A DNA stretch of 12,544 bases from Chthoniobacteraceae bacterium (GTDB lineage Bacteria; Verrucomicrobiota; Verrucomicrobiia; Chthoniobacterales; Chthoniobacteraceae): positions 1 through 12,544 of the forward strand of contig JANNXQ010000249.1 in the NCBI GenBank assembly GCA_031409655.1. The letters are read 5' to 3'. This document shows, in pieces, positions 1 through 10,007 of the stretch (the first letter of the stretch is position 1; each line of letters begins with the position of its first letter). A program made the position numbers and the translations under genes. Under the pieces are notes generated by a model. The model was not told where the DNA came from. It did not search any database and worked only from the letters and a program-made list of their open reading frames with translations.

Positions 1-1
1 A

Positions 2-1321
2 GATTTTAATAATGACGGCACGGGCGGTTTGATGCTGGAGGCATCGGACTTCAACGAGTATTCTTTGCGAATCAATCCGTTCGTGGTTGGTCCGAGCAAG
101 GTCGGCTATCAGTTCAAAACAACGAGCTTAGCAGGTGGGACGACCGTCCCCCTGACGTTCGATAACGCCGGCAACGTCGGCATCGGCACGACCACGCCCG
201 CCACCAAGCTGGAAGTCGCGGGCACCATCACCGCCACGGCTTTCAGCGGCCCGGTCACCGGCAACGTGAGCGGGAGCGCGGCGAGCTTCACCGGCTCGCT
301 GGCGGGAAATGTCACCGGCACGCAGGGCGCGACCGTCGTCGCCAGCGTCGGTGGCGTGACTGCGGCGAATGTGGCCGCGGGCGCGAACCTCGCCAATGCG
401 GCGACGACGGCGAACACGCCGAACACGATCGTGAAACGGGATGCCAGCGGGACGATCCCCGCCAGCGCGGTGGCTACGGCACCGCCGGGGATGGCGCTCA
501 TTCCGGCGGGGACATTCACGATGGGCAACTCGATCGGGGATGCCGACATCACGGATGCGACTCCGATCAAGACGACGGTGTCGGCGTTTTACATGGATGT
601 GAATCTGGTGAGCCTCAGCCAGTGGCAGGCGGTAAAAACCTACGCGGATGCCAACGGCTATACCTTCACCAATGCCGGTTTGGGCAAGGCGGCGACCCAT
701 CCTGTGCAGACGGTGAACTGGTATGACTGCGTGAAGTGGTGCAACGCGCGATCGCAGCAGGCTGGGAGAACACCGGCGTATTACACGGATGCGGGGCTGA
801 CCACGGTCTATAAAACGGGGGAGCCTGGGACGGTCTATGTGGATTGGGTGGTGAGCGGGTATCGTTTGCCGACGGAAGCGGAATGGGAGAAGGCGGCGCG
901 GGGCGGGCGGAGCAATCAGCGGTTTCCGCGGGGCAACACCATTTCCCAAAGCCAGTCGAACTACTACGGAGACACGGCCAGCTATGCCTACGATTTGGGA
1001 CCGAACGGCTACAACGCGGTTGGGAGCGTCGGGGGAACGTCGCCTGCGACGAGTCCTGTGGGCTCGTTTGCGGCGAACGGGTATGGTCTGAAAGACATGG
1101 CTGGGAATGCGTTCCAGTGGTGTTGGGATTGGTATGGGACTCCGTATGCTGGAGGCAGCGATCCCTACGGGCCAGCTTCGGGCTCGGACCGCGTGCTCCG
1201 CGGCGGCTCTTGGTTCGACTTCGCGGACCTCGCGCGCTGCGCGAGCCGCGACTACTACTACGGCCCGACGAGCGCCTACGACAACTTTGGCTTCCGGGCT
1301 GTGCTGCCCCCAGGTCAGTGA
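2..1321 (+). CDS. 5'-truncated protein with tail-fibre-like stalk and C-terminal FGE-sulfatase (SUMF1/EgtB/PvdO-like, CLec-fold) domain; candidate DGR target
   Basis: The frame is open from position 2 (DFNNDGTGGLMLE...), so the true start is probably upstream of the window. Motifs MALIPAGTFTMG, HPVQTVNWYD, YRLPTEAEWEKAARGG, NGYGLKDMAGNAFQWCWD, RVLRGGSW and GFRAV are typical of the FGE-sulfatase family. The N-terminal GNVGIGTTTPATKLEVAG and Gly/Ala/Thr-rich segments resemble fibre repeats. Confidence 0.9.
   Translation, partial: DFNNDGTGGLMLEASDFNEYSLRINPFVVGPSKVGYQFKTTSLAGGTTVPLTFDNAGNVGIGTTTPATKLEVAGTITATAFSGPVTGNVSGSAASFTGSLAGNVTGTQGATVVASVGGVTAANVAAGANLANAATTANTPNTIVKRDASGTIPASAVATAPPGMALIPAGTFTMGNSIGDADITDATPIKTTVSAFYMDVNLVSLSQWQAVKTYADANGYTFTNAGLGKAATHPVQTVNWYDCVKWCNARSQQAGRTPAYYTDAGLTTVYKTGEPGTVYVDWVVSGYRLPTEAEWEKAARGGRSNQRFPRGNTISQSQSNYYGDTASYAYDLGPNGYNAVGSVGGTSPATSPVGSFAANGYGLKDMAGNAFQWCWDWYGTPYAGGSDPYGPASGSDRVLRGGSWFDFADLARCASRDYYYGPTSAYDNFGFRAVLPPGQ
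1187..1321 (+). other. Putative DGR variable region (VR) and IMH-like 3' end
   Basis: Codons at the usual CLec variable positions are NNC (GAC, CTC, TTC GAC TTC, GAC CTC, AGC, GAC TAC TAC TAC GGC, AGC GCC TAC GAC AAC). The intervening scaffold codons are almost adenine-free. Confidence 0.6.
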
Positions 1322-1619
1322 GCAACAGAACAGCTAGCGGAACTGCCCGGAGCAGGCGAGGCGGAGCGAGGGACGAGCGCAGCCTGACTGCGGAGCGATC
1401 GAAGCGAATGAAACTTCCCGAACTGGAAAAGAGAAAGCCCGCGCAGCGGCGGAAATGTTTGTGAAGCCTTGAATCATGCCCAAGCCCGCCCCCATCCCGC
1501 CCCCGCGCCGGCTGCCCATCGAACCGGGAACATCCCACTTTGAACAAGGAACCATGAACGCCCCCGCCGCCGATCCTTCGCCGACCCTCGCAAGGACGCG
1601 CGCTTCGCAGCCTCCTGCC

Positions 1620-2021
1620 TCAAACCGACCAGTCTTCCACGCGCAGGCCGGGGATGCGGTTGAATTCCCCCGTGTTACCGGTGACGACGGTCAGGTCGTT
1701 GGCCAGGGCAATCGAGGCAATCAGGAGATCGTTCAAGCCGATGGACCTGCCCTCTTTCTCCAGCGTATCGCGCGCAGTCGCGTAGTGATGCGCGGCGGCG
1801 CGGTCGAAATCGAAGTTCTCCAGCGGATCCAGCACCCTCTCGACCCGCTCCCGCCGTTCGGCGGGGTTTTCGTATTTCCGTGCGCCGTGCAGCAGTTCAG
1901 CCCACACCACGGAGCAGGTGGCGATTTGATCCCTGGGAGTCGCCTCCAGCCGCGCCCGAATGCTGGTTTGCCGGCCTTTGAAATAGAGGATCCAGGCGTT
2001 GGTATCGAGCAGGTAGCGCAT
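1620..2021 (-). CDS. vapC: PIN-domain VapC family toxin
   Basis: MRYLLDTN at the N-terminus, ELLHG, and NDLLIASIALANDLTVVTGNTGEF carry the PIN acidic residues. The ATG at 2021 overlaps the upstream stop (TGATG); a GTG at 2024 is an alternative start. Confidence 0.92.
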   Translation of the reverse strand: MRYLLDTNAWILYFKGRQTSIRARLEATPRDQIATCSVVWAELLHGARKYENPAERRERVERVLDPLENFDFDRAAAHHYATARDTLEKEGRSIGLNDLLIASIALANDLTVVTGNTGEFNRIPGLRVEDWSV

Positions 2022-2263
2022 CACCAGTTGGCGATGGGTTCGAGGGGCGAGTCCGCCGGGAAGTCGAAGGGCTCATTGGCGAAGCAACCCGCCGTTTGCT
2101 CGAAGTATCCGACCGGCCAGCCTTTCGCATCCACCTCGACGGGCTTGGCCTTCGATGGCTGCACGAGGGCAATCGCATCGCGCACCAGCCGCTCCAGCTT
2201 GGAGGCCGAGTCGGGGTCGAGTTCCTTGAGGGTGGCTTGCAAGTCCACTGTGACCGTGCTCAT
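2021..2263 (-). CDS. Putative antitoxin (80 aa) of the upstream-encoded VapB type
   Basis: Small ORF translationally coupled to vapC. Acidic C-terminus GWPVGYFEQTAGCFANEPFDFP resembles VapB-type tails. Start taken at MSTVTVDL (ATG 2263), which sits behind a promoter-like motif. Confidence 0.75.
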   Translation of the reverse strand: MSTVTVDLQATLKELDPDSASKLERLVRDAIALVQPSKAKPVEVDAKGWPVGYFEQTAGCFANEPFDFPADSPLEPIANW

Positions 2264-2298: not shown

Positions 2299-2364
2299 CC
2301 GCAGAATCCGGGGATGCCCGCCGAGGGTAAACCATTCCCTGATGCCGCCGATGCAAACCATCCG

Positions 2365-2393
2365 TTGCCCGATGCGACCGGTTTCGCTAGTCT
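2365..2393 (+). promoter_or_regulatory. Putative sigma70 promoter for the rightward TA module (leaderless)
   Basis: TTGCCC (2365-2370)-N17-TAGTCT (2388-2393), then 7 nt to the ATG at 2401. No Shine-Dalgarno sequence. Confidence 0.55.
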
Positions 2394-2400
2394 CCGCGCC

Positions 2401-2628
2401 ATGATTACCATCCAGGAAACACTCGTGGTGGATGCGCAAGGGCAGGCCGTGATCACGCTGCCGCCCTCGGTGAAGCCGGGGCCGCACCGGGCGGTGGTGC
2501 AGATCGAGGACGAGGTGGAGGCCGCGCCCGCAAAGCCCGTGACCCCGAAGGCGGGATGCCTGAAAGGCTTTTGGATGGCCCCGGACTTTGACGCGCCGCT
2601 GGAGGATTTCCGGGAGTATATGGAATGA
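2401..2628 (+). CDS. Putative antitoxin, DUF2281-like (75 aa)
   Basis: C-terminal PKAGCLKGFWMAPDFDAPLEDFREYME is characteristic of DUF2281-type antitoxin tails. ATGA overlap with the downstream PIN gene. Confidence 0.82.
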   Translation: MITIQETLVVDAQGQAVITLPPSVKPGPHRAVVQIEDEVEAAPAKPVTPKAGCLKGFWMAPDFDAPLEDFREYME

Positions 2629-3011
2629 AGCTGCTGCTCGATACGCATGCGCTGATTTGGTTTCTGGAGAATGACCCGAAACTGAGCGCAGCGGCGCGGG
2701 AGGTGATCGAGGAACCCGCGAACCAGCGATGGGTGAGCATGGCCAGCGGATGGGAGATCGCGATCAAGGCGCAGATCGGGAAGCTGCGGTTGCCGCTGGC
2801 TTTCGAGGGATTGTTTCCCGGTGCGCTGGAAGCACGCGGCTTTTCCATCCTGCCGATTCAGGCGGGACATTTGCACCGCTATCACGCGCTGCCGCTGCAT
2901 CACCGCGATCCTTTCGACCGGCTGCTCGTCGCGCAGGCGTTGGCGGATGGATTCAGCGTCGTCGGCAACGATGCGGCGTTCGATGCCTATGGCGTGACGC
3001 GCATCTGGTGA
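2625..3011 (+). CDS. vapC: PIN-domain VapC family toxin (Sll0205-like subtype)
   Basis: MKLLLDTHALIW, WEIAIK..IGKL, LPLHHRDPFDRLLVAQA and D..FDAYGV..IW motifs. Confidence 0.93.
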   Translation: MKLLLDTHALIWFLENDPKLSAAAREVIEEPANQRWVSMASGWEIAIKAQIGKLRLPLAFEGLFPGALEARGFSILPIQAGHLHRYHALPLHHRDPFDRLLVAQALADGFSVVGNDAAFDAYGVTRIW

Positions 3012-3033
3012 CGCGACCACTTTCTCTCCTGCC

Positions 3034-3942
3034 ATGAAAACACCCATCCTCCTCGCCGCGGTGCTCGCACCTGCGCTGTCCTTCGCCGGCCCGCGCACTT
3101 CCACAAACTACACCATCGCCACCGATACAGCCGACGCCGGCGGCAAACGCACCACGAGCGCAAACTACACGAACGACGGCAGCGCGGGCGGAGTCGCGGG
3201 CATCTCCACCGTCGCCGCCCCCGCCGAGACGGCGAAGCACGGCTACCTCGGCCAGCTTTACGACGTGACCGGCCTGGTGCTCAACGCCACGCCCACCACG
3301 GTGAACGAAGGCGGCACGCTGCAACTCAGCGCCGGGCAACTGCTCGATGACGCCACCACGCTCGCGGTGCCTGCTGCGTCTGTAACTTGGAGCGTGGCCG
3401 CGGGACCACTGACCGGGATCAATACCAGCGGAGTCGCTACCGCCGGCGCGGTGTATCAAGCCACCGCCGCCACCGCGCAGGGCATTTTTGCCGGCAACAC
3501 CAGCACCCTCGCGCTCACCGTGCTCAATGTGAACTTGGATAACTTCGGCGCCTACGCCGGCGATACCCTCGACGACGCCTGGCAGGTGCAATACTTCGGC
3601 CAGCCCCCGAACGCGAACGCCGGCCCGCTCGTGGACTTCGACCGCGACGGCCAGACCAACGCCTTCGAATACACCGCCGGGCTCATCCCCACCGACGCGA
3701 ACTCCGTCTTCCGCCTGCGCCTCGAAACGGTCCCCGCCCAGCCCGGCCAGAAGCGCGTGATCTTCAGCCCGCGCCTCACCGACCGCACTTACATCGTGAA
3801 GGCCAAACCCAGCCTGCTCACCGGCCCCTTCGCCCCGCTCGGCAGTTCGTCCTTCTCCGACAACGCCCAGGAGCGCACGGTCACCGACCTGAGCGCCAGC
3901 GGTGCGACGAAGTTTTACCAGGTGGAGATCACCAAGCCGTAG
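3034..3942 (+). CDS. Secreted protein with Ig-like domain, TSP3-like Ca-binding motif and Verrucomicrobia-type C-terminal domain
   Basis: Signal peptide MKTPILLAAVLAPALSFA. Ig-like segment TVNEGGTLQLSA...VTWSV...GINTSGVAT. DDAWQVQYFG...DFDRDGQTNAFEYTAG motif and terminal KFYQVEITKP. Strong GC3 codon bias. Confidence 0.8.
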   Translation: MKTPILLAAVLAPALSFAGPRTSTNYTIATDTADAGGKRTTSANYTNDGSAGGVAGISTVAAPAETAKHGYLGQLYDVTGLVLNATPTTVNEGGTLQLSAGQLLDDATTLAVPAASVTWSVAAGPLTGINTSGVATAGAVYQATAATAQGIFAGNTSTLALTVLNVNLDNFGAYAGDTLDDAWQVQYFGQPPNANAGPLVDFDRDGQTNAFEYTAGLIPTDANSVFRLRLETVPAQPGQKRVIFSPRLTDRTYIVKAKPSLLTGPFAPLGSSSFSDNAQERTVTDLSASGATKFYQVEITKP

Positions 3943-3943
3943 C

Positions 3944-4042
3944 GAAAGTAGTCATGGGCTTTAGCCCGTGAAGACATGGCGCGCTGAGGGAGCGATCGAT
4001 CCGATTCGCCGCCTGGACGGGCTAAAGCCCAGCACTACTTTC
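3944..4042. repeat. GTAG-family REP doublet (REPIN-like)
   Basis: Inverted arms 3944-3969 (GAAAGTAGTCATGGGCTTTAGCCCGT) and 4017-4042 match at 24/26 nt. Each arm has GTAG followed by a GGGCT-TT-AGCCC palindrome. It begins 2 nt after the stop codon. Confidence 0.85.
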
Positions 4043-4196: not shown

Positions 4197-5510
4197 ATGA
4201 TGCTCCATCGCCGCCAATTCCTCCGCCACCTCGGCGTTTCTGCCGCCGCGCTGCCTTTCCTCGCGGGGCTGCCCAGCCTCACCGGTGCGCCGCTGCCGCA
4301 GCGACGCCAGCGCCTGGTCATCATGTTCTCGCCGAATGGCACGCTGCCGCAGGATTTCTGGCCCGATGCCGCGGGCGACGAACTGGTCTTCAAGCCGATC
4401 CTGCAGCCGCTCGAACCCTTCCGCGATCGCACGCTCATGCTCCACGGCATCGCCAACAAAATCCGCGGCGATGGTGACGGGCACATGCGCGGGATGAGTT
4501 GTCTGCTCACCGGCACGGAGCTGCTGCCCGGCAATATCCGCGGCGGTGGCGGCCAGCCAGCAGGCTGGGCCAGCGGCATCTCGATCGATCAGGAGATCAA
4601 AAACTTCCTCCAGAGCCGGCCGGAGACACGGACGCGTTTCGGCTCGCTGGAACTCGGCGTCGCGGTGCCCGATCGCGCCGACCCATGGACGCGGATGAGC
4701 TACGCTGGGGCGAATCAACCCGTCGCGCCGGTGGACGATCCGTATCAGATGTTCGCGAAGCTTTACGGACGGATGAAGGATCGCGACAGCCTCGTGAGCA
4801 TCCTCGACGACGTGCGCGAAGATCTCGGCCGCGTCTCCACGAAGCTCAGCGCGCGCGACAAGGCGCTGCTCGAACAACACGTCACGCTGGTGCGGAATCT
4901 GGAGCAGGAACTTTCCAACAACGCCGCCGACAAAACGGTCGCGCATCCGATGCCCGAACTCGACCCGAGCATCGAACTCGTGAACGACAACACCCCCCAG
5001 ATCTCGCGGATGCAGATCGACCTGCTGGTCAACGCGCTGGCCAATGACATGACCCGCGTCGCCACGCTGCAATACATGCGCAGCGTCGGTCAGGCGCAGA
5101 TGCGCTGGCTCGGCATCGAGGAAGGCCACCACTCGCTCTCGCACGAGCCCGACACCAACACCGGCGCCTACGAGAAGCTGCAGAAGATCAACACCTGGTT
5201 CGCCGGGGAATTCGCCTATCTCGCGAAACGTCTCGCCGAGACGCCCGAGCCCACTGGCGAAGGCTCGATGCTCGATCACACCCTGCTCGTCTGGACGAAC
5301 GAACTCGGCAAAGGCAACTCGCACACCCTCGACAATATCCCCTGCGTGCTGGTCGGCGGCGGCGCCGGATTCAAGATGGGCCGCAGCCTCCAGCTCGGCA
5401 ACGTGCCGCACAACCGGCTATGGCTCAGCGTTGCGAATGCGCTGGGCCATGACCTCAAGACCTTCGGTAAGGCCGAACTCTGCGAAGGCGGCGCGCTGAA
5501 TCTGGCGTAG
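4197..5510 (+). CDS. DUF1552 domain-containing protein (Tat-like N-terminus)
   Basis: RRQFLRHLG...LPFL N-terminus, [73 protein letters not shown]. Start at ATG 4197 or 4200. Confidence 0.88.
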
Positions 5511-9877: not shown

Positions 9878-10007
9878 CTGGGAGCGCCGCCGTCCCGTGC
9901 GGTAATCGTGGCTACGCGCGCAGCGCCCGTGGTCGCTCCACCTCGTCCGGGAAGTGAACGCTCCGCGTTGAGCCTCCGATTGCCGCACGGGACGGCGGCG
10001 CTCCCAG
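9878..10007. repeat. REP/REPIN-like or MITE-like inverted repeat
   Basis: Arms 9878-9908 (CTGGGAGCGCCGCCGTCCCGTGCGGTAATCG) and 9977-10007 are reverse complements at 30/31 nt. It begins 2 nt after the yyaL stop codon. Confidence 0.85.

Follow-up and report, generated by a model that had tools for sequence, protein, structure and literature searches.

The contig described here raises the question of what a DGR-like variable repeat means when it stands by itself. The window, i.e., the whole stretch of 12,544 nucleotides that was analysed (GC content ~64%), is contig C249 of the 6.85-Mb draft genome (G000; 306 contigs, 94.9% complete) of a Chthoniobacteraceae bacterium, and it opens with a gene of the FGE/CLec kind. 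At the end of this gene the original prediction, made from the sequence alone, saw a DGR variable region with no template repeat (TR) or RT nearby and took it for a candidate remote target that is or was diversified in trans from a template located elsewhere. It has thus to be asked whether the tail is a variable repeat (VR), what kind of system wrote it and whether that system is still within its reach. The features are collected in Table 1.

Table 1. Features of the target gene and its downstream flank (window positions unless stated otherwise)
Feature	Position	Strand	Remarks
Target gene	2..1321	+	ORF; contig edge cuts the 5' end; frame closes ...GFRAVLPPGQ-stop at 1321
FGE-sulfatase-like C-type lectin (CLec) domain	aa 162-434 of target	+	PF03781, E 4.5e-45
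Variable repeat (VR)	1179..1288, mutagenised part 1187-1288	+	18 variable codons; longer by one codon in 1250-1264 than the aligned alleles and templates
Putative IMH	1289..1317	+	Encodes GFRAVLPPGQ; identical to two close alleles in all 10 codons
Retained spacer	1322..1467	+	In intact cassettes separates target from HRDC accessory gene; ~150 nt; break near 1465-1477
130-nt element	1478..1607	.	First non-DGR sequence past the break; 91.5% identical to C212:1578-1707, behind a paralogous fibre gene
PIN (VapC-like) gene and upstream 80-aa putative antitoxin	1620..2263	-	PF01850, E 1.2e-19
DUF2281 antitoxin and PIN gene pair	2401..3011	+	PF10047 and PF01850

Codon style and adenine-specific variation in the tail of the target gene

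Together with its IMH, the VR spans 1179-1317 at the 3' end of the FGE/CLec gene. The translation first given for this tail is correct, and the start proposed for the variable region, 1187, holds for its mutagenised part, but similarity to templates is found already from ~1179-1181. The richness in NNC codons is real: 25 of the 34 codons at 1187-1288 end in C against 18.5 expected from genome codon usage, and opposite template AAC it is 16 of 17 against 10.3 (P=0.002). The T-ending style of the preceding stretch is likewise borne out, since of 50 codons 16 end in T (7.5 expected) and 9 in C (23 expected); two-fold NNY codons are divided 13 C to 1 T in the VR versus 26 C to 28 T in the part of the domain ahead of it (P=0.002). 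The caveat that GC-rich genomes favour NNC codons anyway is apt insofar as this genome is GC-rich, yet the excess of C-ending codons and the switch of codon style at the VR border go beyond GC bias alone. The scaffold codons mostly avoid adenine, as had been stated, except for one at 1268, whereas TCT at 1208, which had been counted among them, proves to be a variable codon when aligned with alleles and templates.

The distribution of differences among alleles carries the assignment further. Against the window, two close alleles (L085 and L089) differ at codon positions 1/2/3 by 5/7/31 and 5/11/36 over 184 body codons (350-900), i.e., mostly at third positions, whereas over 33 codons of the VR the order is inverted, at 12/9/3 and 10/10/4; the IMH differs at none (0/0/0 in each). 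For the count of adenine columns, the template of the nearest cassette found (L119) served as a proxy for the cognate one, with the indel zone at 1250-1264 left out. The window differs from this template at 24 of 37 A columns and 7 of 65 others (P=2e-8), from L085 at 17 of 27 A columns versus 4 of 60 others, from L089 at 14 of 27 versus 3 of 60, and from a metagenome contig of runs X1 and X3 at 17 of 27 versus 0 of 60 (this contig of 169 nt has 21 differences, of which 19 are listed: 1 upstream, 1 in the indel zone and the 17 counted). The enrichment reaches P values from 1e-6 to 2e-11; the alleles are related and hence not fully independent, and the three comparisons agree. Allele differences lying outside the putative template adenines, which had been named at the outset as evidence to the contrary, are few; A columns dominate in all three alleles.

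The same contrast extends to proteins. In an alignment of the window protein with 41 others, picked for high identity among 120 homologues listed, the 13 most variable columns all fall within the VR, and the entropy is 2.94 bits at variable codons versus 0.69 in the scaffold and 0.73 in the body. Residues that AAC cannot yield (K/E/Q/M/W) make up 9 of 719 at the variable codons versus 91 of 1024 in variable columns of the body. Given the inversion of codon positions, the concentration on A columns, the depletion of residues unreachable from AAC and an IMH in common with complete cassettes, the tail of the target gene is almost certainly a DGR variable repeat, and this part of the original prediction stands.

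A second variable segment lies further upstream in the CLec domain, at window 900-1060, and is not adenine-specific (differences at positions 1/2/3 of 17/10/19 and 14/12/24). Part of it resembles the version in genome G148, not that in G083, and run X1 has a 118-nt replacement there; this variation suggests mosaic exchange between alleles.

The target as a putative secreted fibre

The CLec domain is preceded in the target protein by a low-complexity stalk. The end of another contig, C31, overlaps window 1-56 exactly and continues the frame from a signal-peptide-like start (judged by eye); if C31 is the upstream part of the gene, the product is likely a protein of ~684 aa with a signal peptide. 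Two paralogues in the same genome (C212 and C144) have the N-terminal module or the stalk in common with the target and end in a different repeat head. This sharing of module or stalk between proteins with other heads, along with the signal-peptide-like start on C31, makes the target likely to be a secreted modular fibre with an exchangeable head.

The domain matches the structure of TvpA (2y3c) at E 9e-25 and the FGE fold family (SUMF1/FGE) at E 1.7e-27. The active site of FGE is formed by a cysteine pair preceding the RCAAR motif, and both positions are absent or gapped in the target when aligned to 2aft. The AlphaFold model of the CLec domain (pLDDT 32.6) is unusable, so that the placing of the variable residues on the exposed face of the head leans on homology to TvpA, by which they would be exposed.

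Cassettes in relatives and their decay

Scans with the VR form of the IMH, which cannot match templates directly, led to 5 loci in genomes and 18 in metagenomes. Four of the loci (L090, L098, L102 and L104) are complete cassettes, ordered target, HRDC gene, RT and TR, with adenine-specific TR/VR pairs. Their VRs end in the same IMH motif as the window, and the templates of related cassettes carry a distinct IMH*, a G/C change near the end of the motif. TR/VR mismatches fall on a template A in 17 of 18 cases in L090, 17 of 18 in L098, 25 of 28 in L102, 20 of 21 in L104 and 24 of 26 in L119. The AAC-rich template style that had been guessed exists in relatives. A CRISPR-like array with 36-nt repeats lies ~2 kb downstream of the complete DGR of L102 (L102:4270-4885).

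From these intact loci a series of decay can be followed: L119 has a frameshifted RT, L095 an HRDC gene without an RT, L094 and L097 an HRDC stub and L093 the spacer only. Twelve further loci have neither HRDC nor RT within 1.1-3.5 kb downstream, and three more have too little downstream sequence; in this survey of the loci L070 and L071 had no match to the motif used. L119 shares its stalk with the window (89% over 210 nt) and has a more distant head; at L119:3117-4227 the frameshifted RT is accompanied by a template that bears one scaffold change absent from every VR compared, which fits decay. A VR in the draft genome G886 matches the L119 template, departing from it at 20 A positions and 2 others, but neither a TR nor an RT turned up in G886. 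One identical VR recurs in the core-less loci L093, L096 and L100, which may be one population sampled repeatedly, as against three different VRs in L090, L102 and L104 with their near-identical templates.

Across 151 genomes of the family, the head subfamily occurs in 28, a DGR-type RT in 14 and both in 6, so that no DGR RT was found in 22 of the 28 head-bearing genomes, most of which are drafts and not every head of which need carry a VR.

Several of these loci have peculiarities of their own. At L085:1617-2900 the closest allele is followed by a toxin-antitoxin-like pair and then by a truncated second VR with IMH and a repeat of the downstream flank. At L087:2600-9850 a transposase-like insertion lies next to three to four tandem FGE targets with this IMH, and inspection showed no apparent fit between these targets and the single DGR template detected in that genome (L109, L123). 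Giant frames of 2700-4500 aa with tandem FGE heads were seen in L073:2800-5700 (G073:C13), L155 and L180 (G058:C119) and L181 (G055:C12). In G073 and G058, five head copies, internal or terminal, have VR-type ends that are unlike one another; compared with the G074 template, these ends depart at 16-23 of 38 A columns and 6-12 of 88 others. Neither genome (62% and 80% complete) yielded a DGR RT.

A break ahead of the accessory gene

Downstream of the window VR, homology to the cassettes persists for a short distance and then ceases. Window 1292-1465 aligns with the VR-to-HRDC stretch of L119 (L119:2441-2620) at 76% identity (E 7e-28), and 1291-1467 with the intact cassettes L090, L102 and L104 at 65-66%; the homology ends 4-27 nt ahead of the position of the accessory gene ATG. 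Where the cassettes have HRDC and RT, the window has a PIN gene with its 80-aa companion, an ORF for which no family match was found; the pair is absent from the paralogous C212 locus. Beyond it, window 2354-3946 is 87% identical to C212:1738-3337. In 34% of DGRs the IMH is followed by a GC-rich hairpin (PMC5758913); folding at this place in the window is not significant (z +1.3; 178 of 200 shuffles fold as well), and no close perfect inverted repeat was seen.

The flank also holds a secreted-looking 302-aa protein (3034-3942) without a Pfam or NCBIfam match, which is met close to fibre-type genes at no fewer than five sites of the genome (the window, C212, C144, C232 and C152) and 2 kb behind the VR in L103; it has no homology to the protein behind the L119 template (E 0.68). 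DUF1552 genes usually have partner genes close by, and the one at window 4197-5510 stands without them. A ~130-nt repeat (window 9878-10007) is found on at least 12 other contigs, and the 140-nt sequence at the contig end (12404-12544) is 99-100% identical on five others.

The search for RT, template and accessory gene

As first noted, no TR or RT was found near the gene, nor was one found elsewhere in the window or in the rest of the assembly. With PF00078, no RT was matched in G000 (94.9% complete), the control being positive in 3 of 14 genomes; by tblastn, six RT queries gave a best E of 0.056 and a seventh nothing at E≤0.1. Neither blastn nor an adenine-aware scan nor an AAC-run pattern found a TR in this assembly: the whole-genome BLASTN proposed as a check for a near-identical copy returned only paralogues at 60-65%, and the closest matches of the adenine-aware scan, self aside, still carry 13 non-A mismatches over 66 nt and 16 over 69 nt. 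A query with Avd-like accessory genes had no match in G000, and one with HRDC a single partial match (C181, 76 aa, E 7e-7), which may be a helicase domain. In the closest paralogue (C232:54350-55195; 63% at the amino acid level) the tail resembles a VR that has decayed: its IMH is altered, and the same spacer is there in part.

Beyond G000, searches of 151 family, 401 order, 401 phylum and 145 other-family genomes, along with viral and metagenome scans, did not recover the cognate template. The template pattern occurs in 4 of the 151 family genomes (none cognate), in 0 of the 401 phylum genomes, twice in the 401 order genomes (the window itself and another VR) and in no viral contig; the exact scaffold pattern occurs in no metagenome contig. 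The genomes with the closest alleles (G083, G148 and G167, all drafts, one of them rated 100% complete) likewise yielded no RT or TR. The original prediction had granted that the lack of a TR-like copy or DGR RT in the genome or close relatives would tell against it, and neither was found in G000 and these three genomes. A remote, i.e., non-adjacent, target has been defined by differing from a TR of the same genome only by A-to-N changes (PMC5758913). As no such TR and no RT was found in this assembly, nor an accessory gene of the cassette type beyond the partial HRDC match, the designation as a remote target diversified in trans is not supported.

A probable orphaned cassette target and its alternatives

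That the gene retains the spacer, cut short right ahead of the accessory gene, suggests that it was diversified in cis and lost the core later. The reading to which we would assign a probability of roughly 0.6 is that the VR is an orphan, once the target resident in a cassette whose adjacent accessory gene, RT and template have been lost; the locus would then likely be the frozen leftover of a known kind of system and not a new one. The ancestral order would have been that which relatives still show, with the target first and the HRDC gene, RT and template behind it. Template RNA would have been reverse-transcribed with errors at adenines and the copies inserted from the IMH; the 18 codons altered in this way are likely to make up the ligand-binding face of the CLec head. 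The core would subsequently have been swapped, through a rearrangement shortly ahead of the HRDC start codon, for a toxin-antitoxin block found elsewhere in the genome. The cell would now be left with one fixed binding specificity on a secreted modular fibre, open to change only by ordinary mutation or allele swap. This reading has its limits: a 2-kb core could be unassembled or unbinned, given the completeness and fragmentation of this assembly and the draft state of the other negative genomes, and the spacer is no proof of loss at this spot, since a duplicated target would carry it too.

A possible but rather unlikely alternative is that a core which the assembly lacks continues to act on the target, either from a remote cassette in trans or in a sub-population that has the core in place. 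The intact IMH and spacer would suit such an arrangement, remote targets are known in 10 DGRs (PMC5758913), and trans activity along with strain variants that have intact cores is documented in Thiohalocapsa (PMC10907252). The population data bear on it from both sides. They are contigs of low depth (2-9), assembled from four runs of a single study that may include the source sample; runs X5-X20, whose word shares were small, are not used, and gaps in contig cover are not counted as findings. The flanks of the window are present exactly in all four runs, and its exact VR is present in X3. One variant VR allele, rediversified throughout but for an unchanged non-A scaffold, stands as an identical contig in X1 and X3. 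X1 has the exact flanks but no contig of at least 99% identity across the window VR. The gene body that possibly belongs to this variant, on a neighbouring contig, is ~5% different from the window; 0 of 60 non-A differences despite such a divergence suggests recent rewriting from a common template. The variant may be an allele that is likewise frozen, a paralogue or an indication that the population still contains a core, and a precedent for each of these is in print (PMC10907252). Its identity in two samples and the exact VR in one fit stable alleles, no template-like loose end is among those listed for the 18 contigs over the VR (three further loose ends lie beyond these), and the failure to find an RT or TR in G000 and in the three genomes with the closest alleles also weighs against a core maintained elsewhere.

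That the CLec head was diversified in another organism's DGR and that horizontal transfer or head swapping then joined it to a resident fibre gene, with no core ever in this lineage, is quite improbable. Near-identical heads (L085 and L089; 82-85% nucleotide identity over 1.1 kb) were indeed seen in another genus and in a genome not belonging to the family set, none of the 3 same-genus genomes has a match to the VR, and the fibre paralogues on C212 and C144 as well as L119, which has the stalk with a more distant head, would agree with heads that move. The spacer up to the accessory gene would nonetheless have travelled along, for which reason the donor piece would have to be a cassette fragment, and such a transfer differs from the loss of a resident core only in the site of the break. 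Scarcely credible, finally, is an ordinary FGE-family tail with NNC codons from GC bias and variability from relaxed or positive selection: the genome is GC-rich and FGE tails do share the RGGSW...GFR scaffold, but it is positions 1-2 of template-A codons that vary, against conserved third positions and a conserved scaffold, residues out of reach of AAC are depleted, four other FGE tails of G000 (C270, C130, C29 and C131) lack the NNC pattern on inspection, and the A-column enrichment refutes it.

Implications

The presumed orphan can be placed, tentatively and with more doubt than confidence, in a family-wide pattern wherein the DGR is a transient visitor that diversifies the CLec heads of secreted fibres and is then shed, the frozen heads being kept, swapped and stacked in giant proteins as a heritable library of binders that outlives its generator. 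This is proposed because 22 of the 28 head-bearing family genomes are without a detected DGR RT and because frames of 3000-4500 aa in two such genomes have several different VR-type ends; a full-text search found no paper on such a library in this family. Were orphaning the rule in the family, past mutagenic retrohoming would have shaped a larger share of surface proteins than is now estimated, and the set of alleles would amount to a natural library of CLec binders. Taken singly, the locus is an ordinary degenerate DGR. It nevertheless illustrates that codon pattern and alleles suffice to recognise an isolated VR, and that such a VR is not necessarily a live remote target; surveys anchored on the RT overlook VRs that do not adjoin one (PMC8144416).

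Comparison with known systems

The target class, the HRDC accessory genes and degenerate loci have all been published already (PMC5758913, PMC10907252); our full-text search, covering titles and abstract openings, brought up no evident paper on orphan VRs or HRDC DGRs in Verrucomicrobia, and supplementary DGR tables may list such cassettes. From FGE itself (SUMF1/FGE), whose fold family it shares, the window protein differs in its missing active-site cysteines and its hypervariable segment. A closer parallel is provided by DGR target category 'b', with a CLec1 VR at the C-terminus of an FGE-sulfatase domain, e.g., TvpA of Treponema denticola (PMC5758913). Both have a VR at the C-terminus of an FGE-like CLec domain, flanks that are constant, an IMH that encodes the 3' residues and an N-terminal extension; the differences are that no TR or RT was found in the window genome and that the N-terminal part is a Verrucomicrobia-type secreted module with a stalk common to non-CLec paralogues. 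To judge from its sequence, the target works like TvpA-type CLec1 targets, and this assembly supports neither membership in an active DGR nor remote-target status.

Cassettes with an HRDC accessory gene make up 14 of 372 DGRs (PMC5758913), and those seen in relatives (L090, L098, L102, L104 and L119) match the window in IMH, VR layout and downstream spacer, L119 also in the stalk. The window is set apart by having no HRDC gene, RT or TR and by a non-A scaffold that departs from the nearest template at the 7 columns counted above. A parallel might also be struck with Thiohalocapsa PB-PSB1, which has degenerate DGR loci and candidate remote targets—its DGR 1 is no longer variable, and its DGR 7 has no matching TR elsewhere (PMC10907252). 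There, as here, a CLec target stripped of its machinery lies near small repeated elements; complete DGRs of each class are kept in that genome, whereas none was found in G000, and its targets are NTPase- or vWA-linked sensors, whereas that of the window looks like a secreted fibre.
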